From sequence record OQ101254.1: a DNA stretch of 64,000 bases, one strand, 5' to 3'. A program made the translations under genes and the position numbers. Shown in pieces: positions 20,483 through 41,200 of the stretch. The notes under the pieces were generated by a model. The model was not told the origin of the DNA and made no database searches. It saw only the letters and a program-made list of their open reading frames with translations. Each line of letters begins with the position of its first letter. Position 1 is the first letter of the stretch. This stretch comes from Acinetobacter phage Acba_11.

Positions 20483-20483
20483 T

Positions 20484-22709: not shown

Positions 22710-22767
22710 GCCTAATGGCTCTTTTTTTTGCCCATTTTGTTATACGTAGTTATACGATGAGGAAGTT

Positions 22768-23238
22768 ATGGCGACACTAAAAGAGCCTGTGAAAATCTTT
22801 ATAGTTCAGTCTCTTGCTTGTCGTGATACACCTCAAGAAGTGGCTGAACTCGTAAAACAAGAGTTTGGCGTTGATATAGATCGTGTTCAAGTTGCAACTT
22901 ATGACCCTACAAAGGTTGCTGGTAAGAACTTAAGCAAAAAGTATGTCGAACTATTTGAAAAAACCAGAGATGAGTTTGATAAAGGCTTAATTGATATTCC
23001 AATTGCTAATAAGTACTACCGATTGAAGCAATACCAAAGACAACTTGAGAAGACTAGAAACGTCAAAACAGCCTTAAAAATTCTTGAGCAAGCCGCTAAA
23101 GACATTGGTGGTCAATTTACTAATCGCCAAGAAATTACAGGCAAAGACGGCGGACCAGTCCAAACAGTTAATTCAGAAATTCCAGTTCCAATGGAAGATT
23201 ACTTAAAAGCGCGGAGGGAAGTCTTAGATGAGTACTGA
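22768..23238 (+). CDS. terS: Putative terminase small subunit, module B
   Basis: Paralog of 10341..10811. N-terminal third diverged, C-terminal two thirds near-identical. Confidence 0.5.
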   Translation: MATLKEPVKIFIVQSLACRDTPQEVAELVKQEFGVDIDRVQVATYDPTKVAGKNLSKKYVELFEKTRDEFDKGLIDIPIANKYYRLKQYQRQLEKTRNVKTALKILEQAAKDIGGQFTNRQEITGKDGGPVQTVNSEIPVPMEDYLKARREVLDEY

Positions 23239-26103: not shown

Positions 26104-26104
26104 G

Positions 26105-27208
26105 ATGGCAACAGATATCAAAAAACTATTTGAAGTACTCACTCAGCACCAGGCCTATCTTTATCGTGCTTCATCAAAAACGGTAAATGAGTTATTGGCT
26201 TTATTCAATGATGATACGAGCAAGATGCTATCTAAGCTTCGGGATTTATTGGATGAGCTTAATGAGTCGGAGAAAGTTGCTTTAGCTGGTGGTAAATATA
26301 CAACTTCAAATTTAAGGGAAATTAGGGATTTGATTGCCCAATGGTTTGCCAGTGTTAATTTAGCATTACCTGAAGCTTTTGCCGTTTCTGCTACGGCGCT
26401 GGCTGTTTATGAGGCCAATTACGTATCTAAGCTCTATGGAGCAAAAATTAATAAGTCTGATGGGGAAAAACTATTCTTATCCGCTAAAAAAGTTCCGTTG
26501 GCAGGTGGCGCTCTTGTCGATGATCTGCTTTCAAGAATTGCTGAAAGTGCCCGTCAAAAGGTTGAGTATGCAATTCGAGATGGTATTAATTCAGGCAAAA
26601 CTAACCAAGAAATTGTTCAGCGTATTCGTGGTACCAAACGGCTTAACTATGAAGATGGGATCTTAAATGGTACCAAAACTGATATTGAGCGAACGGTAAG
26701 AACTGTGCGAAGTCATGTAGCTAATCAAGCCTATCTAAATAGCTTCAACCAAATTGGCTTTGAATATGTCCGATTTGTGAGTGTTCTTGATGGACGAACT
26801 TCTAAGCTTTGCGCTTCATTAGATGGTTCAGTGTGGGAAATAAATGATCCGGCAAAGCGAGTGCCGCCGTTACATCCTAACTGTCGCAGTATCTTGGTTC
26901 CGGTCGAGAAGGACGGTCAACTTGTTGGCGAACGGCCATTTGTAATGGACGAACGTAGAGTTAAAGACATCCCCAAAGAAGAGCGAAGCCAGTTAATAGG
27001 ACAGTTAGATGCAAACACCACATTCAAAGAGTTCTTTAAGAAAACAGATGATTTCTTTCAAAGGGAGTGGCTAGGGCCAAAGCGCTTTAAGCTCTATAAA
27101 GATGGGAAATTTGATTTTGATAAGTTCTTTGATCCTGAAGGCCGTTTCTATAGCTTAGATGATTTGAGAAAGTTGGATGAAAAAGCTTTTAAAAAGTTGG
27201 GTCTGTAA
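26105..27208 (+). CDS. Head morphogenesis protein (Mu gpF / SPP1 gp7 family), module B
   Basis: 367 aa, HPNCRS motif. Confidence 0.75.
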   Translation: MATDIKKLFEVLTQHQAYLYRASSKTVNELLALFNDDTSKMLSKLRDLLDELNESEKVALAGGKYTTSNLREIRDLIAQWFASVNLALPEAFAVSATALAVYEANYVSKLYGAKINKSDGEKLFLSAKKVPLAGGALVDDLLSRIAESARQKVEYAIRDGINSGKTNQEIVQRIRGTKRLNYEDGILNGTKTDIERTVRTVRSHVANQAYLNSFNQIGFEYVRFVSVLDGRTSKLCASLDGSVWEINDPAKRVPPLHPNCRSILVPVEKDGQLVGERPFVMDERRVKDIPKEERSQLIGQLDANTTFKEFFKKTDDFFQREWLGPKRFKLYKDGKFDFDKFFDPEGRFYSLDDLRKLDEKAFKKLGL

Positions 27209-27252
27209 TTTTTCTTATGTTATATTTTTTAAAACATCAGAATTTATACAAT

Positions 27253-27645
27253 ATGAAAACAATAGCTTTTGTATGTCTAACCCTAATTTCCATCACTTGT
27301 TTAGCTGAACCAAGTCAAAAATATCTTAAAGAATATGATCGATTGTCTGAAGCTTTGGAGTCAGCAATGGCAAATGCATATTCTTTTGATCCTGCAACTG
27401 GTCAAGTAAAACAGGCTACTCAAGGTTTAGAAGCTAAAAATAATTTATGTAGAGCTGCCCAGGCGAAACTAAACCTCACCACGTTTTTAAAAGACAATTT
27501 AGAGGAATCTAAAGAGCTTTATAAATCTATTGATGGTGCAGAGACTCTAGATAAAAATTATCTTAGTGGAAAACAGCAGGAACAACAAAATCTCGTTTCA
27601 AATTTGAAAAAAGACCTTGTTGGAACTGGATTTAACTGTGAGTAA
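27253..27645 (+). CDS. Secreted/periplasmic protein with signal peptide (moron, module B only)
   Basis: MKTIAFVCLTLISITCLAEPSQ signal peptide, two Cys in the mature part, AT-rich flanks. No counterpart in module A. Confidence 0.5.
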   Translation: MKTIAFVCLTLISITCLAEPSQKYLKEYDRLSEALESAMANAYSFDPATGQVKQATQGLEAKNNLCRAAQAKLNLTTFLKDNLEESKELYKSIDGAETLDKNYLSGKQQEQQNLVSNLKKDLVGTGFNCE

Positions 27646-27743
27646 TTATTGCCGATTACAGGTAATTCTAAACTCACTTAAGACACAATTTTCACCTATA
27701 TAAGCGCCCAAATGGCGCTTTTGTCATTTATGGAGTTTGGCTT

Positions 27744-27986
27744 ATGAGTGAATCAAAAGTTAGACATTTGGTACTTAAAAGAGTTTCAGATAAATCTTCT
27801 CATCTTGCTCTTTGTGACGAGGAAACAGGTATTCCATTAGCTGGATTAACCGCTGTAAAAATGAATTGTAGTGTTTTTGAGGGTCCAGCGACTATCACGG
27901 CAACATTTGATGTAGGTGGTCCTCAAGGCATCCGCTTAGTTGGTGATGAACCTAGACAAAAGGTTTGGAGTGCAAAGGAAACGTAG
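27744..27986 (+). CDS. Hypothetical protein (module B only)
   Basis: ORF preceded by hairpin at about 27700-27722. Confidence 0.35.
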   Translation: MSESKVRHLVLKRVSDKSSHLALCDEETGIPLAGLTAVKMNCSVFEGPATITATFDVGGPQGIRLVGDEPRQKVWSAKET

Positions 27987-28203
27987 CGAAAGGCACTACA
28001 AATGCCTGAAAAGCAAATCAATATGTCAGATGCTCAATATATTCTGAGCACAAAATGAATTCTGGTGCCATTTCTTCAAATTAAGGTTTCAAGCCATGGC
28101 AATTTATGGTTTTACTTTTGAAAGATTAAAATCAATCGCACTCATCAAATAGAACTTAATTTTTAACCATAGCACCTTCGGGTGCTTTTTTTGCGAGAAG
28201 AAA

Positions 28204-28395
28204 ATGCCAAGCCCTATTATCCAATATTTCCAATATGAACATTTACCTGAACATTTGCAGCAAGTTAGTAAGCCAATTGGTGATTTAGCTCGGCAAATGG
28301 ATGAGCAACTTCCTGACGGGCCTGAAAAATCCACAGGATTAAGAAAGCTACTTGAAGCAAAAGATGCATTTGTACGCCAAGCTTTAAGTAAATAA
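28204..28395 (+). CDS. Hypothetical 63-aa protein (module B only)
   Basis: ORF between two terminators (28172-28192 and 28413-28434). Confidence 0.35.
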   Translation: MPSPIIQYFQYEHLPEHLQQVSKPIGDLARQMDEQLPDGPEKSTGLRKLLEAKDAFVRQALSK

Positions 28396-28439
28396 TCATT
28401 TATAGAAATGAAGCGTCCTAAAGGGCGCTTTTTTATTGC

Positions 28440-28508
28440 CTGCCGAAAGCGGATGCTAACGGCGAATCCGGGCGGATGCCCATTTTGTATATATAGGTTG
28501 GATGACCA
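28440..28508 (+). promoter_or_regulatory. Conserved GC-rich element upstream of the scaffold gene (module B copy)
   Basis: TGCCGAAAGCGGATGCTAACGGCGAATCCGGGCGGATGCCCA, then TTTTGTATATATAGG, then ATG. GCGGATGC x2. Confidence 0.4.
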
Positions 28509-29276
28509 ATGAAACTTAAAACAGTAACAATCGACGGTAAAGTTTATGCGGAAGTAGACGGTGATAAGCCGATCTATATTCATGATGACGGCAAAGAAAT
28601 GCCACATGATGCACCACACTCGGTAGCAACAATTGCACGCTTAAACAATGAAGCTAAAACACATCGTGAAGCCAAAGAAGCAGCCGAAAAAGCATTAAAA
28701 GCTTTTGAAGGAATTGAAGACCCAGCGGCAGCTAAAAAGGCATTACAAACAATCCAAAATCTCGATGATAAAAAGCTGGTGGATGCCGGTGAAGTTGAGA
28801 AAGTTAAAGCTGAAGCTATCAAAGCAGTTGAGGAAAAATATGCCCCGATTGTTGCGCAACGTGATGCTCTAGAAGCCTCTTTACATAAAGAACTTATCGG
28901 CGGTGGTTTTGCTCGTTCTAAGTACATTCAAGACAACATTGCAGTACCTGTGGACATGGTTCAGGCAACCTTTGGTCATCACTTCAAAATCGAAGAAGGC
29001 AAGGTGGTTGCATATGATCCGAACGGCGAAAAGATTTATTCACGTGTCCGCCCGGGTGAACTTGCAAATGTTGATGAAGCTTTAGAGTCATTGGTTGGTG
29101 GATACCAGCATAAAGACTTAATTCTTAAAGGTGGTAAAGGAACTGGTGGCGGTTTTCAAGGTGGGGGCAAAGGTGGAGCGCCTGCAGGAATGAAACGCAG
29201 TGAAATGTCTGTTTCTCAGAAAGCTGACTACATCAAAGAACATTGCAATGATGCCTTCCTAAAACTGCCGAACTAA
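28509..29276 (+). CDS. Capsid scaffolding protein, module B
   Basis: Paralog of 16083..16850. Confidence 0.6.
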   Translation: MKLKTVTIDGKVYAEVDGDKPIYIHDDGKEMPHDAPHSVATIARLNNEAKTHREAKEAAEKALKAFEGIEDPAAAKKALQTIQNLDDKKLVDAGEVEKVKAEAIKAVEEKYAPIVAQRDALEASLHKELIGGGFARSKYIQDNIAVPVDMVQATFGHHFKIEEGKVVAYDPNGEKIYSRVRPGELANVDEALESLVGGYQHKDLILKGGKGTGGGFQGGGKGGAPAGMKRSEMSVSQKADYIKEHCNDAFLKLPN

Positions 29277-29303
29277 TCATTAAAAATTTGGAGATAAGTA
29301 GTT

Positions 29304-30260
29304 ATGACTACAACAGTTAATTCAGACATGATCATCTACAACCAATTGGCTCAAACTGCTTATTTAGAGCGTTTGCAAGACAATTTGAACGTATTTAACC
29401 AGGCCTCTAATGGTGCAATTGTATATCGCAATGAGATTATTGAAGGTGATTTCAATAAAGAGGCATTTTACAAAGTGGGCGGTAGCATCAAGCATCGTGA
29501 TGTGAATTCAACCGCCAAAGTAGTGCCTGAGAAGATTGGGTCTGGTGAATCTGTAGGCGTAAAAGTCCCATATAAATATGGTCCTTATGCTTCAACCGAA
29601 GAGGCATTCAAACGCCGTGCACGCACACCTGAAGAGTTTGCCATGATTCTTGGTTATGATTTAGCAGATGCATTAGTTGCAGGACGTTTACAGTACAGTT
29701 TAGCCTCCTTAAAAGCAGCTATTTCTAGCAACCCGGATATGGTTGCCAAAGGCAGTATTGCTGTAGATGGGCGTAAAGCATTAACACGTGGTATGCGTAA
29801 GTTTGGCGATAAGTTTGGACGTATTAGTTTATGGGTAATGAACTCAGATACTTATTTCGATATTGTCGATGATGCAATCACTAATCAAATTTATGGCGAA
29901 TCTGAAATCGTTATCTATGGTGGTTTACCGGGTACCTTAGGTAAGCCGGTATTGGTTACAGATGCCGTAGGTGATGATGATGCATTTGGTTTGCAAATGG
30001 GTGCAGTTACTGTTACAGAATCACAAGTACCAGGCTTCCGCGCGTATGACATCAATGATGAAGAAAACTTGGCAATCGGTATGCGTGCTGAGGGTACATT
30101 TAACCTAGATATTCTTGGTTATAGCTGGGATACATCAAAAGGTGAAAACCCTGACCTTACTTTACTTGGTTCAAGTGCCAACTGGAAAAAACATGCTACT
30201 AGCAACAAAATGACAGCAGGCACATTGCTTGATCTATCTGGCACAACAACAACTGGTTAA
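29304..30260 (+). CDS. Major capsid protein, module B
   Basis: 318-aa paralog of 16878..17834, about 95 percent identical. Confidence 0.75.
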   Translation: MTTTVNSDMIIYNQLAQTAYLERLQDNLNVFNQASNGAIVYRNEIIEGDFNKEAFYKVGGSIKHRDVNSTAKVVPEKIGSGESVGVKVPYKYGPYASTEEAFKRRARTPEEFAMILGYDLADALVAGRLQYSLASLKAAISSNPDMVAKGSIAVDGRKALTRGMRKFGDKFGRISLWVMNSDTYFDIVDDAITNQIYGESEIVIYGGLPGTLGKPVLVTDAVGDDDAFGLQMGAVTVTESQVPGFRAYDINDEENLAIGMRAEGTFNLDILGYSWDTSKGENPDLTLLGSSANWKKHATSNKMTAGTLLDLSGTTTTG

Positions 30261-30324
30261 CTCATAAACATCTCACTATAAGAGGGCTATTAAGCCCTCT
30301 TTTTACATTTAAGAGAAATGCATC

Positions 30325-30990
30325 ATGAAGCTAATTTATACACGTATTGCTGCTGCAGCTGCGTTAGAGGTTGGAACTATTGCCAATCCTGATTATTACG
30401 AACATCCGAATCGAAGTGCTGAAGAAGTAATTATTTACGGTGATTACCCGAAAATCCAAAATGATTACCAAGCTCTGGATATTCCTGTTGAAGTTCGCAA
30501 ATTGGAAGAGCCTGCAAAAACGACATTGGCCACTGTAAATGTAGCGGTTGGAATTACTCCAGAGCTGCAAGAAGTTATTGATAAAACTAAAGCTGAGTGT
30601 GAAAAGGTTGTTGAGGAAAACGGGCAACTTAAACAGAAAATCGAAATCTTGGAACAAGCTAGTGGTGATAGTTCGGAGTTAATTTCTGAAAACTCACGTT
30701 TAAAAGATGCTGTACTCCAAGCTGACAATGCTACTAAAGCGGCTGAAGAAAAGGTAGTAAGCATTCAAGCAGAGTTTGATGCTTTTAAAAATGATGTTGC
30801 TGCTATGCAAGCGCGTATTGCTGAATTGGAAGCTGGAAAAGCGGCAGAAAATTCAGCAACAGAAACGGCAGCTAATGATTTTGAAAACTGGTCAAATGAT
30901 CAATTAAAAGAGTATTTGGCTAGTAAAAACATTGGTTACAAACCGTCTGCAACAAAAGCAGAACTCCTTAAATTAATCCCGAAGGAATAA
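30325..30990 (+). CDS. Head-associated coiled-coil protein with C-terminal HeH motif, module B
   Basis: Paralog of 17900..18565. C-terminal 60 aa identical. Confidence 0.4.
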   Translation: MKLIYTRIAAAAALEVGTIANPDYYEHPNRSAEEVIIYGDYPKIQNDYQALDIPVEVRKLEEPAKTTLATVNVAVGITPELQEVIDKTKAECEKVVEENGQLKQKIEILEQASGDSSELISENSRLKDAVLQADNATKAAEEKVVSIQAEFDAFKNDVAAMQARIAELEAGKAAENSATETAANDFENWSNDQLKEYLASKNIGYKPSATKAELLKLIPKE

Positions 30991-30994
30991 TGCA

Positions 30995-31384
30995 ATGAGC
31001 TTTATTACTGTAGATGACGCAAATTCAATTTTGGGCAGCGATTTTGCACCAGACAGTGATAAAGCTCGTCTGGTAAAGCTGGCTAATGTTTGGATGAAAA
31101 AACGGATTGGTTTTGTACCAGATCCTATTGATCCACTTCTTAAAGACGCGGCTTGTGAAATTATCAAAGGAATTCTGGCCAAAGTAATTTATAACGGCAA
31201 AGACCAGCAGTTGAAACGTAAGAAAGTTAAAGCTGATTCTGTTGAGTCAGAAAAAGAATATCAGGACGGATCTGAAGCAATCTCTAGCTTTGAACAGATA
31301 GCAATTGATTTTATTGATTCACTTGAATTGAAAGATCCAAATGCAAGTTTTAATGGCTTTGGCATACCACTTTACAGGGCATGA
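30995..31384 (+). CDS. Head-tail connector/adaptor candidate, module B
   Basis: Paralog of 18570..18959. Confidence 0.45.
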   Translation: MSFITVDDANSILGSDFAPDSDKARLVKLANVWMKKRIGFVPDPIDPLLKDAACEIIKGILAKVIYNGKDQQLKRKKVKADSVESEKEYQDGSEAISSFEQIAIDFIDSLELKDPNASFNGFGIPLYRA

Positions 31385-31754
31385 TATGGGCTTACGTGAC
31401 GAAATTCAGGCAGATATTGCTGAAGCATTTAATGAGGATCTGGCGGATGCGGTCCAAACATTTACATGTGACAGGGTTGTTAGTACCAACTGGAACCCTA
31501 AAACAAACACCTCTGAAAATGTCATTGAGCATTATGAGGGGCGTGGCGTTCTGTTTGGCTCATACAATCAATATGAAATACAAACTCTCGGAGTACTGGC
31601 CACAGATAAAAAGGCAACTGTGCTGCAGAATGAAGTTACCAAAGAGCCGATGATTGATGACGAATGGAGTACGGCGCAAGGTACATATCGCATCATGCAT
31701 ATCAAACAAGATCCAATCAGTGCAAGCTGGAAATGTCAGCTTCGAAAAGTGTAG
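31341..31754 (+). CDS. Head completion protein candidate, module B
   Basis: Paralog of 18916..19329. Confidence 0.4.
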   Translation: MQVLMALAYHFTGHDMGLRDEIQADIAEAFNEDLADAVQTFTCDRVVSTNWNPKTNTSENVIEHYEGRGVLFGSYNQYEIQTLGVLATDKKATVLQNEVTKEPMIDDEWSTAQGTYRIMHIKQDPISASWKCQLRKV

Positions 31755-31762
31755 GGGCTAAA

Positions 31763-32167
31763 ATGGTTAATACCGAATATGTTCCAGAGTGGTACATCAC
31801 ACCTTTTCAGCATGTGCAATACACGCTTGCTAGAAATCAGCTTCACATGGATTTGTTATTTGAAGATATGGATGAAGCTGATCAATTTTTGGATATGGGA
31901 GCGGATGCACAGGTTAGTACTTTTTCTGATGGTGCATATGCAATCGTCCAAATTGGTGATACGGCGGATAAAGACAAAATTCAAGTATATGGATTGCTTT
32001 TACATGAAGCGGTTCACGTTTGGCAAATAGTAAAGAAGCGAATGGGTGAAAGTGAACCAAGTGTTGAGTTTGAAGCATATTCAATTCAAGCGATCGCTCA
32101 AGACCTATTTGAAATGTACGAAGCAAGCGAGGTGAGCAATGGGATGGAAGGGGAAAAAGCCGACTAG
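31763..32167 (+). CDS. Head-tail joining protein candidate, module B (ATG 31763; ORF open from 31664)
   Basis: Same length as the 19338..19742 product. Confidence 0.4.
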   Translation: MVNTEYVPEWYITPFQHVQYTLARNQLHMDLLFEDMDEADQFLDMGADAQVSTFSDGAYAIVQIGDTADKDKIQVYGLLLHEAVHVWQIVKKRMGESEPSVEFEAYSIQAIAQDLFEMYEASEVSNGMEGEKAD

Positions 32168-32507
32168 CTTTAGTGTTGATGTGGTGAAAAATGCTGAAGA
32201 ACAAGTAAAGAAAATCACGATGGATACCGTGCAATCACTTGTAGTTTCGAGTCCAGTTGATACAGGTGCTTACAGAGCTTCTCATATCGTATCTATTGGA
32301 ACTGCTGATTATGGTGTTCGTGAACCATCAACTAATCCAGTTCAAGATGCAGCAGTTCAAGCAGTCAAGTTTAAGCTTGGAAATCTGATCTTTATTCAAA
32401 ACAACAAAGCCTATGGTCCGCGATTAGAAAACGGTTGGTCTGATCAAGCACCTCTTGGTATTTACAGCACTACTTTCACTTACATTACTCAAAAATATGG
32501 TGGCTAA
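32139..32507 (+). CDS. Head-tail joining/tail completion candidate, module B
   Basis: Paralog of 19711..20082. Confidence 0.4.
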   Translation: MGWKGKKPTSFSVDVVKNAEEQVKKITMDTVQSLVVSSPVDTGAYRASHIVSIGTADYGVREPSTNPVQDAAVQAVKFKLGNLIFIQNNKAYGPRLENGWSDQAPLGIYSTTFTYITQKYGG

Positions 32508-32508
32508 G

Positions 32509-32907
32509 ATGCCAATGACATTAGAGCAAGCTAGACAAGCAATAGTCGACCGTATGATGGCCTTTACAGGAATTTCTCAAGAAAGAATCCATTATCCAAA
32601 TGCACCAGGCTTCTTAGCACCAGCAAAGGGCTTATGGTGCCGCTTAACCATTAAATGGGGTCCAAGTTTCATTGCTGGGTTAGCCGATACACCCTGTACT
32701 CGACGTACTGGGAATATCTTGATTCAATGCTTTGCAAGACCAGACACGGGAGACCAGGCAATAACCATTCTAAGTGTTGCATTACTTTCACATTTTGAAT
32801 ATTTCAGGATTGGGCATTTAGAATGCTTTCAAGGTCAAACGATAGATGCGGGTAAAGATGCTGACTTTCTGCAGTACAATGTGACGATTGGATTTACGGT
32901 GAATTGA
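32509..32907 (+). CDS. Tail completion protein candidate, module B (ATG 32509)
   Basis: Paralog of 20084..20482. Confidence 0.4.
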   Translation: MPMTLEQARQAIVDRMMAFTGISQERIHYPNAPGFLAPAKGLWCRLTIKWGPSFIAGLADTPCTRRTGNILIQCFARPDTGDQAITILSVALLSHFEYFRIGHLECFQGQTIDAGKDADFLQYNVTIGFTVN

Positions 32908-32908
32908 T

Positions 32909-33121
32909 ATGTCTTACATGCTGACGCTAGAAGAAAGTGAAATTAAAAAACAAGAGCTTGAACGACACTTGGCAGATGTAATGGCTAAGGAGCTAAGTAA
33001 ATGGCAGTTGTCTAATAAATTATGTATTTCTGATGTAAAAATTCGCCTCGCTAATGTTAATAGCATAAATGGACCAAATTTAAATATTGTTACTGGAGTA
33101 AGTGTTGATTTGGATGATTGA
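32909..33121 (+). CDS. Hypothetical 70-aa protein ending module B
   Basis: Paralog of 20484..20702. Confidence 0.4.
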   Translation: MSYMLTLEESEIKKQELERHLADVMAKELSKWQLSNKLCISDVKIRLANVNSINGPNLNIVTGVSVDLDD

Positions 33122-33228: not shown

Positions 33229-34158
33229 ATGTCGAGTGGTGCACGTCAGATAACACAAATCGCGAAGGAAACCACTGTTGGTACCACACCTTCACCCTTC
33301 GCACGTACGACCTTTGAATTTACTGAAAATGGCCTTGATGCGACAGTAACAAAGGAAGACTCTAACTCAATCACAAGTGGCCGTATTGCACGTTCATCAA
33401 TGATTACCGGTGCAGAGTATGCCGGTGAATTAAAATGTGAAGCGAAGTACAGTTCATTAGTTCAAGACTTAATGGCTGCAGCTGCTTTTAATAACTGGTC
33501 GTCAAATGTATTAACTTTTGGTGGCACACTTCGTCAAACATTTTCTGTTTTACGTGGCTTTGAAGATGTTAATGACTACCATGTTTTCCGTGGATGTCAT
33601 GTAAACACTTTTGGAATTGATATTCCTGAAGCTGGCTTAATTACAATGACTTTCGGCCTTATGGCTCTTGGTCGTACAAACTTTTCTTCAGCACCGGCTG
33701 GAACAATTACAGCGGCAGATAACAATCCTAAAATGTCGAATGTCTCTGTAGGTGACATTTTAATTGACGGCGTTTCTCAAGCTGGGATTTCATGCTTGAC
33801 CGCTTTTACATTTAATTGGGATAACACTATGCAGCTACAACGCTGTTTAGGTGGTGGTATTGATGCACGTGCAATCCTAGAAATGCTTGCAACAGGTACA
33901 GGTTCATTTACCGCAGCTTGGTCACGCAATACATCCGATATGTATGAAAAGCAATTCACTAACAAAACGATTTCATTAAAAGTTCCAATCACTGATACAG
34001 ATGGGAATAAATATGAAATTTTTATTCCTAAAGCTGAAATTACTGCCCCATTACCTAGTGGTGGTAATTCAGATCTTTTAAATGCTTCATTCGAATATAA
34101 AGTCGTAGAAGTAGCCCCAACCATCACTCGTACACCAGCAGCAGTTCCTGCGTCTTAA
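33229..34158 (+). CDS. Major tail (tube) protein
   Basis: 309 aa, first gene after the head module and immediately upstream of the G/G-T chaperone pair. No motif-level match to lambda V was confirmed. Confidence 0.6.
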   Translation: MSSGARQITQIAKETTVGTTPSPFARTTFEFTENGLDATVTKEDSNSITSGRIARSSMITGAEYAGELKCEAKYSSLVQDLMAAAAFNNWSSNVLTFGGTLRQTFSVLRGFEDVNDYHVFRGCHVNTFGIDIPEAGLITMTFGLMALGRTNFSSAPAGTITAADNNPKMSNVSVGDILIDGVSQAGISCLTAFTFNWDNTMQLQRCLGGGIDARAILEMLATGTGSFTAAWSRNTSDMYEKQFTNKTISLKVPITDTDGNKYEIFIPKAEITAPLPSGGNSDLLNASFEYKVVEVAPTITRTPAAVPAS

Positions 34159-34202
34159 TCAATCTGATAGCAGCCTTAGGGCTGCTTTTTTTGGAGTTTA
34201 AA

Positions 34203-34736
34203 ATGGCTTTAAAAGTAAGCATTCAGACTAGTAAAACAGTTAGTAAATGGCGTAAGTATATTGATGGTGAAGGGAATGTATTAGCTGAATTTAAAGTACG
34301 TGGTATCTCATATAAACCATATCAAGTGGCCCTTGAGCGTGCAAATAATCAGATTGCATCAAAAGGTTATGATGTAACTAAAGCTAGTAAAGACGACAAG
34401 CTATATCATGAATTGCTTCTTGAAGCTGCGGCCTGCCATTTAATTGAGGACTGGAAAGGCGTAGTTTTTGAAGAAGTAACCGAAAATCAAGAACTGATTG
34501 TGTCTGAACCAGAATATTCGCAGGAAAATGCAATTAAGTTGTTGAATCTAGGCGATCTTGGTGTGGCAATTTGGTTGTTTGTGAGACAAGAGGCGGAAAA
34601 TATCCAAAAAGAAGCTGATGCATATAAGGATGAAGTAGTGGGAAAGTCATTAACCTCTACAACTGGACCAAGTTCAACTCAGAAGAAGAAGCGAGCGACT
34701 ACAACAAGAAACAAACAGCAATTGCAAAAGCCTTAA
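34203..34736 (+). CDS. G: Tail assembly chaperone, lambda gpG-like (ATG 34203 with GGAG RBS)
   Basis: Position between the major tail protein and the tape measure. Contains the GGGAAAG slippery heptamer near its 3' end. Confidence 0.7.
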   Translation: MALKVSIQTSKTVSKWRKYIDGEGNVLAEFKVRGISYKPYQVALERANNQIASKGYDVTKASKDDKLYHELLLEAAACHLIEDWKGVVFEEVTENQELIVSEPEYSQENAIKLLNLGDLGVAIWLFVRQEAENIQKEADAYKDEVVGKSLTSTTGPSSTQKKKRATTTRNKQQLQKP

Positions 34737-34990
34737 ATTTAAAAATAGCTGAAACCATCCAAAAGCCTGAATACTCATTTACAGCCAATGCCATTCTTTC
34801 AGCATATAACGTAATTTCCCGTTCAAGGCGTTATGAGCAAGGCATTCCCTTGGCTTTGGATATTGCAGCTATATCTGCCTATTGTGATCATTATGAGATC
34901 CCAGTCGAAAGAGATATTTTTAACGACTGTATTTTTGCATTGGATAATTTGTTTTTGGATGAGGTGCATAAGAAAGCGAGTAAAAAATAG
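34203..34990 (+). other. GT: Predicted G-T fusion product via programmed -1 ribosomal frameshift at GGGAAAG (34640-34646)
   Basis: Frame 0 reads gtG GGA AAG (VGK). The -1 frame is closed by TGA at 34631-34633 and then open for 114 codons from 34646 to TAG at 34988-34990. No start codon is needed. Identical heptamer to lambda G-T. Confidence 0.65.
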
Positions 34991-35119
34991 AAATCTATAT
35001 TGCATTTGGCAAAAATCAAAGATAAATTGATGTCTCATACTTCTCACTCTTTGAGTAAGGGCCGCCGGTCGAATGTCGGGCTTTTTTTGTTAAGTGGTAA
35101 TTCACCTACAAAGGAAAGC

Positions 35120-35263
35120 ATGATGAAGAACCTTACTCATGCAGAACCCTATTTCATCATGCGTGAAAAAAAGGAACTGCAAAAGAGACTTTTAGATAAG
35201 AACAATGAACTATTGGAATTGATGCAAAGAGTTGAAAAATACTTGATGAGGATAGAAAAATAG
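35120..35263 (+). CDS. Hypothetical 47-aa protein (below the cut-off) in the accessory island
   Basis: ATG after the hairpin at about 35050-35085, RBS AAGGAAAG. Ends before the bidirectional terminator at 35281-35310. Confidence 0.3.
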   Translation: MMKNLTHAEPYFIMREKKELQKRLLDKNNELLELMQRVEKYLMRIEK

Positions 35264-35280
35264 AGAGTTGTCTTTCTACA

Positions 35281-35310
35281 AAAAAGCCCGCCTAATCAGC
35301 GGGTTTATTT
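35281..35310. terminator. Bidirectional intrinsic terminator (AAAAA-GCCCGC-CTAATCA-GCGGGT-TTATTT)
   Basis: Sits between convergent genes 35120..35263 (+) and 35292..35558 (-). Confidence 0.6.
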
Positions 35311-35558
35311 GTTTCTAGCTCTTCAATTCGTGCCATTAGTTTTTCAATTAAAACAGTTGCGCGATCTAAATTCTTATTGCTCATATCTATAAGCTTCATA
35401 ACTTCAGTTGGGATTTTCTCATTTATATCAAGGCTTTCTTCAAGTCTTGCAACTATTTCAGCAGTTAAAGATCTTTCATTGTCTTTAGCCTTCTCTTCTA
35501 ATAATTCTTTGAGCTTGCTAGGCATTCTAAAATTCACTTGAGAATAATCTTTAGCCAT
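35292..35558 (-). CDS. Arc/Mnt-family ribbon-helix-helix repressor (88 aa from ATG at 35558; ORF open to 35582)
   Basis: NFRMPSKLKELLEEKAKDNERSLTAEIVARLEESL matches the Arc/MetJ RHH fold. Confidence 0.65.
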   Translation of the reverse strand: MAKDYSQVNFRMPSKLKELLEEKAKDNERSLTAEIVARLEESLDINEKIPTEVMKLIDMSNKNLDRATVLIEKLMARIEELETNKPAD

Positions 35559-35582
35559 GGACCATATACCGCAAATTGACAA

Positions 35583-35680
35583 TTAACTAATCATATATAG
35601 CAAAAGTGCTTTACACAATGAAGCAAGAGTGCTATAAAGTAAAAATGCTATATAGCAAAGGTGCTTTATTGGAGGTAAAA
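35583..35680. promoter_or_regulatory. Divergent promoter/operator region between the two RHH genes
   Basis: Direct repeats TATAGCAAA(A/G)GTGCTTTA at about 35596-35613 and 35651-35668, with a related inverted copy GTGCTATAAAG at about 35628-35638. Confidence 0.5.
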
Positions 35681-35842
35681 ATGACAAGGCATGATAAGCA
35701 AATGAACGTTCGTATGGCACATGAAACAGTAAGTGAATTAAAGGAGGTAGCAAAGAAAAATCGTCGATCGGTAACGGCTCAGTTAAATCAAATCATAGAA
35801 GACTGGCTAAAAGAACAGAAACAACAGGATGCGAAAGCATGA
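35681..35842 (+). CDS. Arc-like ribbon-helix-helix repressor, 53 aa (ATG 35681, RBS GGAGGT)
   Basis: NVRMAHETVSELKEVAKKNRRSVTAQLNQIIEDWL. Same length as P22 Arc. Confidence 0.65.
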   Translation: MTRHDKQMNVRMAHETVSELKEVAKKNRRSVTAQLNQIIEDWLKEQKQQDAKA

Positions 35843-35921
35843 AATTAACAGACAACAAAAAAGCCCCTGAATCTTGGCGGATGCGGAGCTTGATTGAAGT
35901 CATAACAGTGAGATATGAACT

Positions 35922-36308
35922 ATGTTAAATATACCATTCGAATTTGATAAAGACAAGGTTCTAGATATTACCGATCTACTGCCAACCATTCCTATTGAGA
36001 TTCTTGAGAAAGTAACAGATCAAAACGGTTCTGTTTCGGCAGATGAAGAAAATTTTCTAAAATCTGTAGGCCGTGCTGCGGAAAATGCAAACCTTCCAGT
36101 TTTAAAGGGATTAAGTGCTATTGGTGTGTTGCTTGCCAACGCAAATGAAGAAATACCGTTAGGAACATTTAATGATGTTGGCTGGTTAATACAATCGCTT
36201 AGCGAACAAGTTTTAGCTATAAGCCATATGCAAGGGTTCGCTGACTTACTTCTTGATGCAAGTAATAAGAACAAAATCTCTAAGGGCAATGGAGGGCTAA
36301 TGTCATGA
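35922..36308 (+). CDS. Hypothetical protein upstream of ant
   Basis: ORF with ATGA coupling to the ant-like gene. Confidence 0.4.
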   Translation: MLNIPFEFDKDKVLDITDLLPTIPIEILEKVTDQNGSVSADEENFLKSVGRAAENANLPVLKGLSAIGVLLANANEEIPLGTFNDVGWLIQSLSEQVLAISHMQGFADLLLDASNKNKISKGNGGLMS

Positions 36309-36844
36309 ATATGCTTATTAACCAAGAAACTTTAATTCCAGTTGTTGATAGAGATATTGGCGGAGAGGTTCAGCCTTCTGTTGATGCACGTGAATTGCAT
36401 AAGTGGCTTAAATCTGGGGAAATGTTTGCCACATGGATAAAAAAACGGATTAAGACCTATAAATTTATTGAAAATGAAGACTATATTAGTTTTTTGGTAA
36501 ACCCCAAAAAACCTAATGGTGGGCGTTCTTCAAGAGAATACATATTAACTATTGATATGGCTAAAGAGCTGTCAATGGTTGAAAACAATGAACAAGGTCG
36601 GGTTGCAAGACGTTATTTTATTAACTGTGAAAAAGCATTGCGACAAACAGCATTTGGATTAATGAACCAATTCAACAGAGCTGTATTAGAGTTTGAGAAG
36701 TTTACTGAAATTGCTTCAAATGCTGGAAGAACATTATGTTTGGTTGGTAAGCAGTACAAACCTCAAGCATTAAGTAAGGTTGAGGAGCTGAAGCAAAAGA
36801 TTACGCCTTTGCTCCCATTCGAAGAAGACGAGATGCAAGCTTAA
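36305..36844 (+). CDS. ant: Antirepressor (AntA N-terminal domain plus KilAC-like C-terminal domain)
   Basis: VDARELHKWLKSGEMFATWIKKRIKTYKFIENEDY (AntA) and ARRYFINCEKAL (KilA-C). Confidence 0.7.
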   Translation: MNMLINQETLIPVVDRDIGGEVQPSVDARELHKWLKSGEMFATWIKKRIKTYKFIENEDYISFLVNPKKPNGGRSSREYILTIDMAKELSMVENNEQGRVARRYFINCEKALRQTAFGLMNQFNRAVLEFEKFTEIASNAGRTLCLVGKQYKPQALSKVEELKQKITPLLPFEEDEMQA

Positions 36845-36940
36845 AAGAATTAAGAACCCGCCAAGTGCGGGTTTTCTTCATGTGACATTTAGTAACCAGT
36901 TTGTTAAAGTTAGTACACTTTATAACAAACGGTGAAATTC

Positions 36941-37447
36941 ATGAAAAAGATTATTTTTATTCTAGCTGCACTAGGAATTATTACAAGTCATGGGTGTATT
37001 ACTATTCCTTCTCCAGAAGAAGTCCAAAGAAATGCTTATAAAGGATATTCTGAAGTGGTAGAACTGAATAGTATTCCTAAAGATCAAATATTTGAACTTT
37101 CAAAAATCTGGATTGCTAAATCTTTTAATTCTGCAAACAATGTCATTCAGTATGCGGATAAAAATACTGGAATAATCATAGGGAAAGGTAACTTTTCTCT
37201 TAAATGCCCTGACAATGTAAAAGGTATGAATTGCTTAGCTTATACATCAACTAAAGCAGAATTTACTTTGAAAATAGAGATAAAAGATGGCAAATCCAGA
37301 TTGACCTTTAGTGATGTACACCAAGCTGTAAATAACTACCCATTTTATGACAATATTTCTAAACCTATTATTGATTCCCAGATTAAAGGGATAGTTAAGA
37401 ACTATGGTCTTGATATCATAAATCAAAAGAATGATTCAAATTGGTAG
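36941..37447 (+). CDS. Predicted lipoprotein (candidate superinfection-exclusion/moron protein)
   Basis: MKKIIFILAALGIITSHGC signal peptide with lipobox-like Cys. Flanked by terminators. Confidence 0.5.
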   Translation: MKKIIFILAALGIITSHGCITIPSPEEVQRNAYKGYSEVVELNSIPKDQIFELSKIWIAKSFNSANNVIQYADKNTGIIIGKGNFSLKCPDNVKGMNCLAYTSTKAEFTLKIEIKDGKSRLTFSDVHQAVNNYPFYDNISKPIIDSQIKGIVKNYGLDIINQKNDSNW

Positions 37448-37547
37448 TAATTTGCTAATAAATAAAAGGTTAAATACTCATACTTAATAGTTTTTAAATA
37501 CCAAATAGCCCACTCATCGAGTGGGTTTTTTAATACCCAAAACAAAA

Positions 37548-37576
37548 CCCCAGTAGCGCTAACTACTGGGGTTTTT
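37548..37576 (+). terminator. Strong intrinsic terminator (9-bp stem CCCCAGTAG/CTACTGGGG plus T5)
   Basis: Precedes the 49-aa membrane peptide gene. Another hairpin lies at about 37509-37531. Confidence 0.65.
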
Positions 37577-37617
37577 CATTCCACCCACCGACGAAAGTAA
37601 GAGGAAAGTAAATCTAT

Positions 37618-37767
37618 ATGGAGCATTTTAAACCAATAGTGGAGCTTATGAAAGTGTCTATTGAAAAGTATGGCTTATGGCAGACAATTATTGCCTTTTT
37701 AATTTTGTTTTCCATACCAATTCTAATCTGGAAATTACCTGAAATCATTGCAGCGATTAAAGCCTAA
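37618..37767 (+). CDS. 49-aa hydrophobic single-pass membrane peptide (below the ORF-track cut-off)
   Basis: MEHFKPIVELMKVSIEKYGLWQTIIAFLILFSIPILIWKLPEIIAAIKA. RBS AAGAGGAAA. Insulated by terminators at 37548-37576 and 37768-37796. Confidence 0.45.
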   Translation: MEHFKPIVELMKVSIEKYGLWQTIIAFLILFSIPILIWKLPEIIAAIKA

Positions 37768-37806
37768 AACCGACCTATCAATGGTCGGTTTTTTATTACC
37801 GAAATT

Positions 37807-38166
37807 TTGGAAGCAAATATGACGGATAAATCCAAATGGTTTGTTTTTAAGAAAAATGATCAAGTTTTTGGATGTTTCAGGATTAAGCCTTTTTCCGATC
37901 CTGAATTTGGTAAAGCCTATAAAATGCTTTGTACCAAAAAAAGTATTTTTAGAATGAGTGCCATGCGATCTGCCCAAGAGTTTGCAAAAATTATCGCAAC
38001 TCATCTTATACAGGATTGGGAAAATATTGAACTTTCAAAAACAGGAATAGCTGGAGAAAAGGAAACACGGTATTCGCCTCAATCGGCCTATCAGCTATTG
38101 ATGTATGGAGATCTAGGGGCTGAGATAACTTCATGGATCTTGGAAAAGTCCAAAAGTATTGCCTAG
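37807..38166 (+). CDS. Second tail assembly chaperone paralog (gpG-like) without frameshift site
   Basis: HLIQDWENIEL...YSPQSAYQLLMYGDLGAEI parallels HLIEDWKGVVF...YSQENAIKLLNLGDLGVAI in the 34203 gene. No XXXYYYZ heptamer near its end. Confidence 0.55.
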   Translation: MEANMTDKSKWFVFKKNDQVFGCFRIKPFSDPEFGKAYKMLCTKKSIFRMSAMRSAQEFAKIIATHLIQDWENIELSKTGIAGEKETRYSPQSAYQLLMYGDLGAEITSWILEKSKSIA

Positions 38167-38226
38167 TTAAGACTCGATTTATTGCCGCCGCTTAAGGTGG
38201 TTTTTTATTGCCTGAAGGAAAGTCAA

Positions 38227-41200
38227 ATGGCTCAAGAAGCTCGCTTAGTAATTGTTATTGATTCGGAACGTGCGAAACGCACTGCACAAGACTTATCAGT
38301 TGAATTGGATAGCATCACCAAAAAAGGGGATTTCGCCTCGAAATCTATGGACCGGATGTCTGTAGCAACTCGTGCACTAGCAGGGTATATGGCTGGTTTA
38401 TTAACAGTAGGTTCAGCCATTTCAAAGATGGATACATATACTGGACTACAAAACCGCCTTAAGTTGGTCACTAATAATCAAGTTGAACTAAATAAAGCTA
38501 CGGAAGACACTTTCCGAATTGCTCAAAAAACCTATTCAGCATGGGATTCTGTTCTACAGGTCTACCAGCGTTTTAGTGATAATGCCAAAACTTTAAACCT
38601 CACAATGGATGACACAGCACGTTTAACTGAAACAGTTTCTAAAGCTGTAGCAATTAGTGGTGCAAGTGCAGAAGCTGCTGATGCAGCTTTAGTTCAGTTC
38701 GGGCAGGCCTTGGCTAGTGGAACGTTGCGTGGAGAAGAACTTAATTCTGTAATGGAGCAAACCCCAGCACTAGCAAAGGCTATTGCTAAAGGTATGGGTA
38801 TTACTGTAGGTGAATTACGTTCAGTAGCAGCTGAAGGAAAAATTACTTCACAAGAAATTGTAAAAGCGCTTAGAAATGTAGAATCTGATGTTGATGCTCT
38901 TTTTGCTAAAACAGATATCACAATCGAGCAGTCTCTCACACTCCTAAACAACGAGATCACAAAATTTGTTGGCGAAGCAGGTAAGGGAAGTGGTGCGGCA
39001 CAGGTATTAGCTGGATCAGTTCAAACTCTTGCAAGTAATTTAGATTTAATTGCTGATGGGGCTTTAGTAGTTGGTATTGGATATATCACTCGTGCAATTT
39101 TGATGAAGAGCGCTGCTATTAAAGAGGGAATGGCTTCAACTTTAGCGAGCCGCCAAGCATCTGTATTAAATGCTCAAGCAGAATATGCAGAAGCTACCGC
39201 TGCTTTGAATGCAGCAAAAGCTCATCTCGCGAATGTGCGAGCAACAAATGCAGAAACCCAAGCTAAATTTGGCGCAACAGCGGCAGCAACTCGATACGCA
39301 CAAGCACAGGCAGCAGTAACTGCTGCTACAAATGCACAAACAGCAGCTCAAATTAAGCTAAATACTGCAACTTCAATTGCAGGGAGACTAGCTAAAGGGG
39401 CGTTTGGATTAATTGGTGGGTGGGCTGGAGTTGCAACATTAGGAGTAATGGGATTAGCGGCAGCCTATTCTTATTTTAATAATAAGGCAGAGGGGGCAAA
39501 GCAAAAGCTTGCTGAACAAGCTAAAGTTGCTGAGAAAGCTGATGAGGAGTTAAAAAAATTAACTGGCAATGATAAGGCTAAAGCAGTTAATGATTTAACT
39601 ACTGCTTTTAATGCACAAAATAAAGCATTAGAGAAATCATCGCGTGCTGTAGGGTCTGCATTAATTGATATCGAGAACTATGCACGAGGAAATAGGGAGG
39701 TTGAAAAAATTTCCCAAGAAGCGAGAACTGGAACTATCAGCTATACAGAAGCCATTGAACGTCTAAATAAAATTAAGTTGCCTACAGATCTATATGAAAA
39801 TCTGAAAAAACAGGCTGCGCAGTATGATGACAATGCATCTAAAGCAAGTTTATCAGCTGAGAAACTTAAATTATTAAGAGTTGAAGTGAAACTTGGAGGT
39901 AATGAAGCACAAAATGCGGCAATTCAGCATCAAAAACAAGCGGATGCTTTAGGAAATACTGCTACTGAAGCAGAAAAGGCAACTAAGGCTTTGCAAGATT
40001 ATCAAGCCAAGCAAAAAGATAGCGTTATTGATTCAATCTATAAATCAGGTTGGCTTGATAAAGGTTACACTGTTGCTCAAGCTAATGCCATTTTAGAACT
40101 GCAAAAAGCTAAAGGAATGAGTGCAATTTTGTCTAAAGATGAAATTGATAGCGCACTTAGAAATCTCAAGATCATCGAAGAACAACAGGAGCGAGAAGAT
40201 AAATTAACTGAAGCTAAAAGAAAGCAAACCAAGGAAAGTGAGAAAAAACTTAAAATCACACAAGCTGAATTGGAAGTAGCCAAGCGATCTGCTGCTTTAA
40301 TTGAATCGAGTGGTTTAGGTAAATATGCTGAAAGCAAAGGGATACCATCAAGTGTAATTGCAGGCTTATTGGCTCAAGAATCTAAAGGTATTCGAGAAGC
40401 TAAGAGTCATACTGGTGCAATAGGATATTTTCAAACAACCAGTGGTTATCGTAAACAGAACAATATGTCTGTTGCTGATAGTTATGACTTGGAAAAGTCG
40501 GGCAAAATTGTAATTGATAATATCGCCAAGGTTTATGAAAAAACAGGTGACTTGGCTCAGGCAATACTTTCCCATAATGCAGGTGAGGGTGGAGCAAGAC
40601 AGTTTACTAAAACTGGCAAGGTTAAAGGCAGTGCAGAGCGAAATAAGGAGGTTTCGCAGTATGTAGCTAAGGTTTCAAGGTATTCCGATATCATTGCTGG
40701 TGGTGTTGGCAAAGGCGGTTTATCCGATGGTGATAGCGATAGAGCCTATGGAAAGCAAATCAAGGCACGTTTAGAGTTAGTTAAGCAAGGTCTAAACCTT
40801 CAAGAGCAATATGAGGAGGAGCAAGCGAAGCGAACCAAGGCTCGTAACGAAGAAATTAACCTTGCGCAACAAACGGGTCAAACAGCCTTAATCCCAAAAA
40901 TTAATGAGCGTTATGATGCTGAAGATAAGTTAGCTCAAAAACAATTTGATTTTGAGGTAAATGGTTATAAGTGGACTGAAGAACAAAAGCTTGATTACAC
41001 ATATGAAACCAATTCATTACGTCTGGTTACTGAGGGGAAATTAACAGAAGAACAGCGCAAAATTGCGATTGATTCGTTTAAGTTACAGCAGCAACAAGAA
41101 TTAGGTTTACTAAAACTTGCTCAAGAGCAACGTCTTTTTCAGGCTAAACAAGCTCTACTGACAGAAACCCAAGCCATGCAGGAACGTTACAGACTCGAAC

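Follow-up and report, generated by a model that had tools for sequence, protein, structure and literature searches.

What is a set of small regulatory genes doing in the middle of a tail operon? The question is raised by the interval 34991-37800 in a 64,000-nucleotide (nt) stretch of DNA from Acinetobacter phage Acba_11 (sequence record OQ101254.1; the whole stretch is referred to as the window, and positions are counted from its first letter). An initial annotation had read this interval, between the T frame of the tail assembly chaperone and the tape-measure gene, as an accessory island with the mnt-arc-ant logic of the immI region of phage P22: a minus-strand Arc/Mnt-like ribbon-helix-helix (RHH) repressor gene at 35292-35558, a divergent gene for a 53-amino-acid (aa) Arc-like RHH protein at 35681-35842, operator-like repeats between the two, a 128-aa gene (orf128) and an antirepressor gene (ant). 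Each of these features was found where that annotation had placed it, gene order, orientation and sizes matched those of P22, and the analogy was extended by an element resembling the P22 antisense RNA gene sar. We conclude that the region is probably a P22 immI-type 'ant moron', that is, an accessory cassette with its own regulation, carried within the late (tail) operon by a temperate Acinetobacter siphophage. Its layout is that of the P22 switch, with two small repressors and a predicted antisense RNA, and the cassette is therefore a new instance of an already known system rather than one of a new kind. What is new here is the host genus and the late-operon slot; the variants are orf128 as the predicted RNA target, identical recognition residues in the two repressors, four similar operators and another Ant family.

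The two divergent genes encode proteins of the Arc family. The 88-aa product of the minus-strand gene (35292-35558) has an N-terminal Arc-type RHH part with the beta strand QVNFRM and a C-terminal helix, and the 53-aa product of the plus-strand gene (35681-35842; GGAGG 6 nt before the start codon) has the beta strand QMNVRM, so that the same beta-strand triad, Q-N-R, occurs in both. The plus-strand gene is 162 nt long, which is the length of P22 arc. Pfam Arc (PF03869) matched both proteins above the gathering score, with an E-value (E) of 1e-10 for the 88-aa protein and 2.3e-7 for the 53-aa protein. Searches of the PDB gave weak but specific matches of both to P22 Arc and Mnt: the 88-aa protein matched P22 Mnt (1mnt) over residues 2-44 with E 0.0037, and the matches of the 53-aa protein were a designed Arc variant, Arc and Mnt. 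AlphaFold2 (AF2) was run on the Mnt-like monomer without an alignment, and in that model the RHH part was poorly folded (one long helix, predicted local distance difference test [pLDDT] 53-71) and the C-terminal helix alone was usable. This helix was modeled with confidence at residues 50-83, and a role in oligomerization comparable to that of the Mnt C-terminus is therefore possible.

We scanned IMG/VR with the Mnt-like protein and obtained 38 related loci (numbered below with the prefix L), with GC contents of 38%-67%. In most of the 38, the Mnt-like gene was divergent from a gene for an RHH protein of 49-70 aa, which was followed by a larger gene. These loci bear on the reading of the RHH pair as a toxin-antitoxin module, a partition (ParG/CopG-like) module or generic autoregulators, with Ant as an independent accessory gene. 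The PHROG families matched by both RHH proteins are in fact labeled 'partition protein ATPase', there are weak Pfam matches to ParG, TraY and FitA-like families, and the same slot holds HicAB in phages AM106 and vB_AbaS_Gln. However, Arc was the best Pfam match for both proteins, an RHH pair with a downstream Bro, KilA, AntA or Rha gene recurred in most of the related loci, and in 29 of the 38 the arc-like gene is linked to the next gene by the sar-like element described below. Among the neighboring open reading frames (ORFs), Pfam and PHROGs gave neither a toxin nor a ParA-type ATPase family, and the toxin-antitoxin and partition readings were rejected because these partner genes were not found. 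We regard this explanation, taken as a whole, as extremely improbable.

Operator-like repeats are present between the two genes, as the initial annotation had proposed. The array comprises four 16-nt units (unit ATAWAGCAARAGTGCT) at 35595, 35618, 35634 and 35650, spanning 35595-35665, and the four repeats are restricted to the 122-nt intergenic region. Each unit is centered on the palindrome AGCA-N4-TGCT, with the third unit reading AGTA. Of the 18-mer TATAGCAAARGTGCTTTA, the 64 kb contain exactly two copies, at 35596 and 35651, where 0.20 would be expected, and both are within the array. The palindrome AGCA-N4-TGCT is found five times in the whole window, three of the five within 35599-35665 (67 bp). 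When the window was compared with L017, the coding flanks were ~78% identical; no change was seen in the proposed promoter hexamers or in the half-sites of repeats 1, 3 and 4, and the N4 centers and the left half of repeat 2 differed.

The short intergenic regions of the related loci all carried repeated palindromes, the sequence of which varied by lineage. The palindrome was AGCA-N4-TGCT in the window, L016 and L017, AGCA-N3-TGCT in L018, AAGCAC-G-GTGCTT in L019, and ACCAC(C)GGTGGT in L021, L022 and L023, where it resembles the P22 mnt operator GGTCCACGGTGGACC. The outward beta-strand residues tracked these half-sites, Q-x-N-x-R being found with AGCA(C) and Q-x-K-x-R with ACCAC, and the divergent RHH pair was retained in 20 or more related loci while palindromes and beta-strand residues changed together. 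Across the sequences compared, the operator sequence covaries with the RHH beta-strand residues. Moreover, in each related locus both RHH proteins share one triad, whereas those of P22 differ (Mnt H-N-R, Arc Q-N-R). The window has one repeat type in four copies and not two distinct operators, which the triad shared by both repressors would explain. By analogy with P22, the RHH proteins would bind this DNA and control promoters at positions that we likewise propose.

The candidate rightward promoter, which resembles P22 P_ant, lies at 35610-35638 on the plus strand (TTTACA at 35610, 17 nt, TGC-TATAAA at 35633) and is kept in both L016 and L017. Repeat 2 is within its spacer and repeats 3 and 4 are around +1, which is the geometry of the P22 arc and mnt operators. 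The candidate leftward promoter (P_mnt-like) is an extended -10, TGCTATATA, at 35594-35602 on the minus strand; both promoters are proposed from sequence. As the -35 of the ant promoter we had also considered TTGACA at 35576-35581, by analogy with P22 and the GC-rich loci, and dropped it, as no acceptable -10 follows 16-18 nt on and L017 has TCAACA. With the promoters placed in this way, the switch might, by analogy with P22, work as follows. In a lysogen, the Mnt-like repressor, made from its own leftward promoter, would bind the AGCA-N4-TGCT repeats and shut the rightward promoter. Upon infection or loss of Mnt, the rightward promoter would fire, leading to production of the Arc-like protein, the orf128 product and Ant. 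The Arc-like protein, with the same Q-N-R residues, would then bind the same repeats and quickly close the promoter, resulting in a short pulse of expression.

The deposited annotation of phage Acba_14 (L001), which is 100% identical to the window over 34000-38400, as are the Acinetobacter phages Aclw_9 and Acba_18, places the start of the Arc-like gene within the operator array, at 35618 (74 aa). In the same record a small helical ORF, which we call orf47 (35120-35263, plus strand), starts at 35030 (77 aa), and that version would cross a terminator hairpin. Ribosome-binding sites (RBS) are present for the 53-aa and 47-aa versions, which fit the lengths of P22 Arc and of the PHROG profile, respectively. 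The Arc-like gene and orf47 are both over-extended in GenBank.

Beyond the repressor pair, a defining part of P22 immI is an antisense RNA, and the spacer between the arc-like gene and orf128 contains a candidate for it that the initial annotation had not mentioned. This sar-like RNA of ~69 nt would be transcribed from 35853-35921 on the minus strand and is complementary to the RBS and start codon of orf128. Its terminator stem is formed by 35885-35891 paired with 35861-35867, with a U-run after it. The candidate promoter, P_sar (35928-35956, minus strand), consists of the -35 TTGTCT (35956-35951), 17 nt and TG-n-TATATT (-10 at 35933-35928); it is located inside the first orf128 codons and gave 9/12 matches with TG in a promoter scan. 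The minus strand of the spacer therefore reads, in order, a TG-n-TAnnnT extended -10 (TGGTATATT in the window), the complement of the start codon and RBS, a hairpin and a U-run. The geometry is that of the annotated P22 record, in which sar occupies 15021-15090 (70 nt) with its terminator directly against the arc stop codon and P_sar in the first ant codons. The RNA of the window has a predicted folding energy of -17.9 kcal/mol (z -2.1), compared with -29.5 kcal/mol (z -5.3) for P22 sar, and no 5' stem-loop of the P22 sar type was predicted in the Acinetobacter element.

The spacer was kept even between loci with very different proteins. We aligned it from 18 loci (alignment A1) and built a covariance model (R1) from this alignment, with P22 excluded. 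In the eight-pair terminator stem of A1, 94.4% of cells were paired, compared with 87.0 +/- 1.3% in shuffles (none of 500 reached the observed value), and four pairs were changed on both sides; with a shifted pairing register as a control, pairing fell to 19-63%. T14, A15 and T19 of A1, which are the T, the A and the last T of the -10, are among its invariant columns, and this invariance holds although the proteins that overlap it on the other strand are non-homologous. When searched against P22 (L045), R1 matched 2522-2616 on the minus strand with 33.7 bits (E ~1e-4), coinciding with the annotated sar and P_sar, and it also matched untrained loci, namely L023 and the second cassettes of L011 and L013. 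The P22 sar terminator is visibly homologous in sequence to the terminators of L024, L025 and L034. With the Rfam sar model (RF00262), P22 scored 97.8 bits, and L024 scored 35.9 bits (E 0.0016) in the right place and on the right strand, below the gathering score of 43. These sequence comparisons establish the homology and covariation of the sar-like element and its -10 among the loci. The window element is, on the same comparisons, a homolog of P22 sar and a predicted antisense RNA, and we suppose that it is expressed.

The hairpin might instead work on the plus strand, as a processing or stability element or as an attenuator of the arc-ant mRNA, with no antisense RNA; the conserved TAnnnT would then have been kept by a constraint acting on the mRNA or on the N-terminus of the protein. 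The hairpin is palindromic and can form on either strand, and the window version is weak as a terminator, both of which would suit such a role. The strand of the RNA can be judged from the stem, however. Read as minus-strand RNA, the stem contains many G.U pairs, which in most loci would turn into C.A mismatches if the plus strand were read, and the RNA strand is therefore the minus strand. The T/U-run after the stem is present on the minus strand only, the invariant TAnnnT, with TG two bases upstream, is at the position of the annotated P22 P_sar, and the homologous P22 element is an experimentally characterized antisense RNA (PMC2629481, references 62-64 therein). We consider a plus-strand element very unlikely. 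Under the antisense reading, the ~69-nt RNA would start in the first orf128 codons, end just past the arc-like gene, and pair with the RBS and start codon of orf128. Pairing would block translation of orf128 and of the coupled ant gene, including that from late-operon read-through transcripts, which would cross the island on their way to the tape-measure gene.

Two further loci show how the spacer behaves by itself. L035 (4645-4746) shares just 35830-35933 with the window and phage phi9102 (47383-47452) just 35830-35902, at 85% identity; here the sar-like spacer alone is conserved at the DNA level, and the flanking repressor and payload genes are not. In view of this lone conservation, the spacer may serve as a recombination joint between regulatory and payload modules. 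The L011 prophage of IMG/VR contains two immI-like cassettes (2207-2693 and 4618-5264) in the same slot between chaperone and tape-measure genes, each with a divergent RHH pair and its own sar-like match, the second of which (31.7 bits, E 5e-4) is outside the training set. The untrained R1 match in the second cassette of L013 is at 2395-2495.

The payload begins with orf128 (35922-36308, plus strand; phrog_14904, E 1.6e-86), which is the first gene after the sar-like element and overlaps ant by ATGA. No Pfam family matched its product. Homologs fell into 62 clusters with identity down to 57%, the three largest together holding >800 contigs, and every species-named cluster was from Acinetobacter. 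The AF2 model (pLDDT 81) has long helices at 40-72 and 80-123; a Foldseek search of it against the PDB gave nothing below E 0.4, the matches being generic helical hairpins only (the cytosolic domain of CorA, for example). The sequence that codes for the invariant C-terminus, GNGGLMS, overlaps the ant RBS and ATG, and ant translation is therefore probably coupled to that of orf128. In phage Ab105-2phi, orf128 is 100% identical and a BRO antirepressor replaces Ant. In L011 and L016 an AntA protein comes directly after the sar-like element with no orf128 in between, which makes orf128 an optional extra payload gene and not a core part of the cassette.

The Ant-type protein (179 aa; 36305-36844, plus strand) consists of AntA at residues 26-95 (PF08346, E 2.4e-27) and ORF11CD3 at residues 119-171 (PF10549, E 1.2e-18) and matched phrog_5817, 'anti-repressor Ant', with E 1.4e-64. 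The initial annotation had called it AntA/KilAC; the AntA part of that description was correct, but there is no KilAC, its place being taken by ORF11CD3. Both Ant and the orf128 product are labeled hypothetical in the Acba_14 annotation. Depending on the locus, the larger gene after the sar-like element encodes AntA, KilA-N, Bro-N, Bro-N+ANT, Rha or ORF6N+ANT. The CI/Cro genes of the main immunity region lie outside the window and were read from the identical phage Acba_14, whose CI consists of a helix-turn-helix (HTH) domain and Peptidase_S24. An Acba_14-type CI is a plausible Ant target: most likely, Ant would bind and inactivate a CI-type repressor, be it the HTH + S24 CI of this phage or that of related prophages resident in the cell. 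Near CI in Acba_14 there is also a gene for a 242-aa pentapeptide-repeat protein (Pfam E 1.7e-53; L046 21611-22339, Acba_14 50610-51338, in the early-left region and possibly beyond the window end), which is adjoined by a type I restriction M-protein gene.

The target of the payload is the point on which another account departs. It keeps the mnt/arc/sar regulation as described and takes the payload to be an inter-phage weapon or host-takeover effector rather than an antirepressor of the phage's own CI; orf128 and Ant, made in a short burst upon infection, might act on heterologous prophages or satellites by inducing or disarming them, or might keep out superinfecting phages. Behind the sar-like element the payload is freely swapped (AntA, Bro-N, KilA-N, Rha, ORF6N+ANT), module breaks coincide precisely with the orf128 ATG (35924) and the orf128/ant junction, and orf128 is lineage-specific and stays with the regulators while Ant is exchanged, all of which would fit this account. 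It is also favored by the S24 autocleavage domain of CI and by P22, whose Ant is reported to act on superinfecting phage and not to be needed for either lysis or lysogeny (PMC11016777). On the other hand, all payload families are classically annotated as antirepressors or Bro/KilA regulators, and the account therefore differs from the antirepressor reading only in the target. No defense or anti-defense family was found among the neighbor genes in Pfam or PHROGs (PADLOC was not searched). We judge it unlikely, and continue to regard the region as an ant moron whose Ant would act on a CI-type repressor. In that reading the binding events, their timing, expression of the RNA, the Ant target, antirepressor activity and the role of orf128 are all proposals drawn from the analysis.

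Several observations weigh against the ant moron reading. In a consensus promoter scan, neither the ant nor the mnt candidate promoter was reported in the intergenic region, and promoter-like sites were not enriched overall (14 found, 14.3 expected); the proposed -10, TATAAA, is without the conserved final T, which is why the P_ant-like candidate was missed. An Rfam scan of 34000-38400 at E <= 1 returned no sar, just terminator look-alikes (Trp/Thr leaders, and small RNAs below threshold), and the sar-like terminator of the window is weak, with 7 bp including one G.U pair. The 88-aa protein had no match in Pfam to PF11423 (Repressor_Mnt, the Mnt C-terminal tetramerization domain), which P22 Mnt itself matches with E 1.6e-20. 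The orf128 gene is without a counterpart in P22, the Ant family differs from that of P22 Ant (P22_AR_N, PF10547, and P22_AR_C, PF10548), and the 'antirepressor' label on AntA proteins is an annotation. Finally, as CI has an S24 autocleavage domain, Ant need not be required for SOS induction.

Whether the region is truly foreign to the tail module was examined by comparison with relatives, which the initial annotation had suggested as a way to define insertion endpoints. AM106 is 99.5% identical to the window from the tube gene to 34962 (the last T codons) and then has HicA, HicB and an outer-membrane protein before its tape-measure gene. In vB_AbaS_Gln, the slot is occupied by HicB, two DUF4468 proteins, BRO and Rha, followed by the same tape-measure gene and the gene that precedes it, G'. 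Ab105-2phi shares 34914-36308 at 99.9% (orf47, mnt, arc, spacer and orf128), after which comes the BRO antirepressor, and Ab11510-phi shares 34914-36957. These four phages differ in cargo and have the same slot, and since relatives with identical tail genes carry other cargo, the region is a mosaic cluster of accessory genes. Conversely, the cassette is 99.9% identical in phages whose chaperone is just 58% and whose tail tube is just 32% identical; a near-identical cassette beside divergent tail genes means that the cassette moves between tail modules. The break points coincide with gene borders or terminators, and the last ~50 nt of T (34914-34962) form a junction common to phages with different cargo. 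The idea of a foreign island was upheld by these comparisons, and the pattern agrees with how a moron is defined in the literature, namely as a set of accessory genes that is inserted in a phage operon and expressed independently. The slot appears as a general cargo hotspot of these Acinetobacter phages, holding HicA/HicB, DUF4468/outer-membrane lipoproteins, BRO and Rha (AM106/L002 8092-9333; vB_AbaS_Gln/L003 1-4884).

The boundaries of the slot are two tail chaperone genes. On the left, downstream of the tail tube gene (33229-34158), is G (34191/34203-34736, plus strand; phrog_313, E 1.4e-52), with its -1 frameshift extension T, which runs up to 34990 on the plus strand (phrog_313, E 5.8e-9). 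By our reading of the sequence, the G frame contains a lambda-type slippery heptamer, GGGAAAG, at 34640-34646, from which the -1 frame stays open to 34990. With the heptamer, the overlapping -1 ORF and phrog_313 over both parts, G/GT is a genuine lambda-type tail chaperone pair. The tape-measure gene is at 38182/38227-42249 on the plus strand. As G/GT is verified and the tape-measure gene starts at 38182/38227, the interval 34991-37800 does sit between them, as the initial annotation had held. The island does not adjoin the tape-measure gene, however: a second tail-assembly-chaperone paralog that the annotation had not mentioned, G' (37819-38166, plus strand; phrog_313, E 7.7e-20), intervenes directly upstream of it. 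G' is 33% identical to G over 58 aa (E 9e-8), is without a T-type extension, and accompanies the same tape-measure type in vB_AbaS_Gln (97% identity from 37789 onward). The arrangement is one of two chaperone sites, the G/GT pair beside the tube gene and the G-like G' beside the tape-measure gene, with the cargo slot in between.

The interval also contains three genes that the initial annotation had left out. The first is orf47, the product of which matched phrog_34228 over its full length (E 6e-35) and is 100% identical in all cassette-bearing loci. The second, at 36941-37447 on the plus strand, encodes a DUF4468 lipoprotein (Pfam DUF4468, E 1.3e-18; phrog_4002) with a signal peptide ending in Cys, and assorts independently of the ant cassette. 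The third encodes a 49-aa membrane protein (37618-37767, plus strand; phrog_35629, E 9e-30). Terminator-like hairpins were enriched (11 found, 3.0 +/- 1.7 expected). One with a T-run lies at 35060-35085 on the plus strand, directly after the T frame (stem 35065-35079, then TTTTTTT); a bidirectional terminator, detected on both strands, is common to orf47 and the mnt-like gene (35284-35306); another follows ant (36855-36878); two hairpins are located at 37507-37527 and 37544-37575; and an apparent hairpin with a T-run comes after the 49-aa gene (37770-37794). The claim that every unit is insulated by terminators did not hold, as no plus-strand terminator was found between the arc-like gene, orf128 and ant. 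The terminator after ant is part of a linker of ~110 nt (36851-36963), which comprises it and the start of the DUF4468 gene region. This linker recurs, 85-95% identical, at module borders elsewhere, and in Ab105-2phi it is present once, inverted, at another place.

The host phage is an A. baumannii Vieuvirus-type prophage or temperate Acinetobacter siphophage: in addition to the identical phages, 34000-38400 is near-identical to several further A. baumannii temperate siphophages, some of which are classed as Vieuvirus. Elsewhere in the window, self-BLAST revealed tandem copies of a packaging/head module (9217-20690 and 21677-33115) with a mutual identity of ~85%. Near 20784 there is a junction, the left side of which matches phages of the Ab1656-2/A1626.2 type and the right side those of the Acba_15/16/4 type, and no deposited phage record spans it. 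The duplicated module could come from tandem or chimeric prophages, from a recombinant or from an assembly join. In the distal tail region, a single ORF of 3489 aa (10.5 kb; 45305-55774), annotated as 'putative main tail protein' in Acba_14, is unusually large for a siphophage tail gene.

The most interesting by-product of the analysis is that mnt-arc-sar, as a unit combined with exchangeable payloads, occurs widely and has mostly escaped annotation. A broader proposal, which we put forward as possible, is that mnt-arc-sar could be a payload-independent portable expression cassette, in phages of GC 38%-67% that include relatives of a Pseudomonas phage; that the sar-like family could be far broader than RF00262, with its promoter constraining the first codons of the downstream gene (AntA, Bro-N, KilA-N, Rha, ORF6N or orf128); and that orf128 might be a direct RNA target and perhaps an antirepressor partner, gate or co-effector. 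The comparisons carry the sar antisense RNA family far outside the P22-like phages of enterobacteria, and one small regulatory unit appears to be reused for many Bro/KilA/AntA/Rha payloads, which offers a simple model of how accessory genes in a late operon are silenced. Temperate A. baumannii phages like this one are being developed for therapy through induction, recombination and engineering; deletion of CI, for instance, is used to make lytic derivatives. A second, P22-like immunity circuit able to inactivate CI-type repressors would affect prophage stability, cross-induction of co-resident prophages and the behavior of engineered phages. The annotation is also corrected: in GenBank the Arc-like gene and orf47 are too long, the RNA gene is missing, and Ant is labeled hypothetical.

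How, then, does the cassette compare with known systems? A literature search found no description of an Acinetobacter immI, of Mnt/Arc/antirepressor systems or of a Vieuvirus variable region, and the transcriptome paper of Hare et al. provided no usable data on the ant cassette. In P22, the roles of mnt, arc and sar are summarized in PMC11016777, and immI, the 'ant moron', lies inside the late operon and has an unusually high rate of change (PMC2629481). The initial annotation had pointed out the embedding in the late operon; since the P22 ant moron is in the late operon as well, this is a shared feature and not a difference. The likeness extends to the minus-strand mnt gene, the short control region with palindromes, the 162-nt arc gene, the spacer and the downstream gene, with matching sizes, and in both systems the two repressors are Arc-family RHH proteins. 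Likewise, a gene for a predicted antisense RNA of ~70 nt fills the spacer, with its promoter in the first codons of the next gene, and the whole is a late-operon cassette bounded by terminators and highly variable among relatives. The two differ in the slot, which here is the siphovirus position between G/GT and the tape-measure gene and in P22 that between gene 16/sieA and tailspike. They differ also in the predicted RNA target, which here is orf128 with ant coupled behind it, whereas P22 is without orf128; in Ant, which here is AntA + ORF11CD3 and in P22 is P22_AR_N + P22_AR_C; and in the Mnt-like protein, which here is without PF11423. Here both repressors are Q-N-R with four similar repeats, whereas P22 has one distinct operator each for Arc (Q-N-R) and Mnt (H-N-R).

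Compared with Rfam RF00262, the sar-like element agrees in position, strand, length class and terminator type (GAAGCCCC...GGGCTTC in P22, and AAGCCCC...GGAGCTT on the plus strand in the window), but the window element is below the threshold and the Acinetobacter stem is short (7 bp). The morons of lambdoid phages are accessory genes in late operons that are transcribed independently, each having a promoter and terminator of its own. As in these, the island consists of independently assorting units, namely the ant cassette, the gene for the DUF4468 lipoprotein and that for the 49-aa membrane protein, which are split by terminators, and relatives have other cargo (HicAB, BRO/Rha) in the same slot; it differs from them in its slot, which has G/GT on one side and the paralog G' and the tape-measure gene on the other. 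The remaining comparison is with immI of P1/P7 (c4 antisense RNA, icd, ant). The AntA domain is present in the Ant described here, and its Pfam name is 'AntA/AntB antirepressor'; this family is named after P1/P7-type antirepressors, and ant expression in those phages is also checked by RNA. P1, however, uses a processed, trans-acting c4 RNA, no counterpart of which was found here (none was looked for), whereas control here would be exerted by an RHH repressor pair and a cis-antisense RNA, as in P22.

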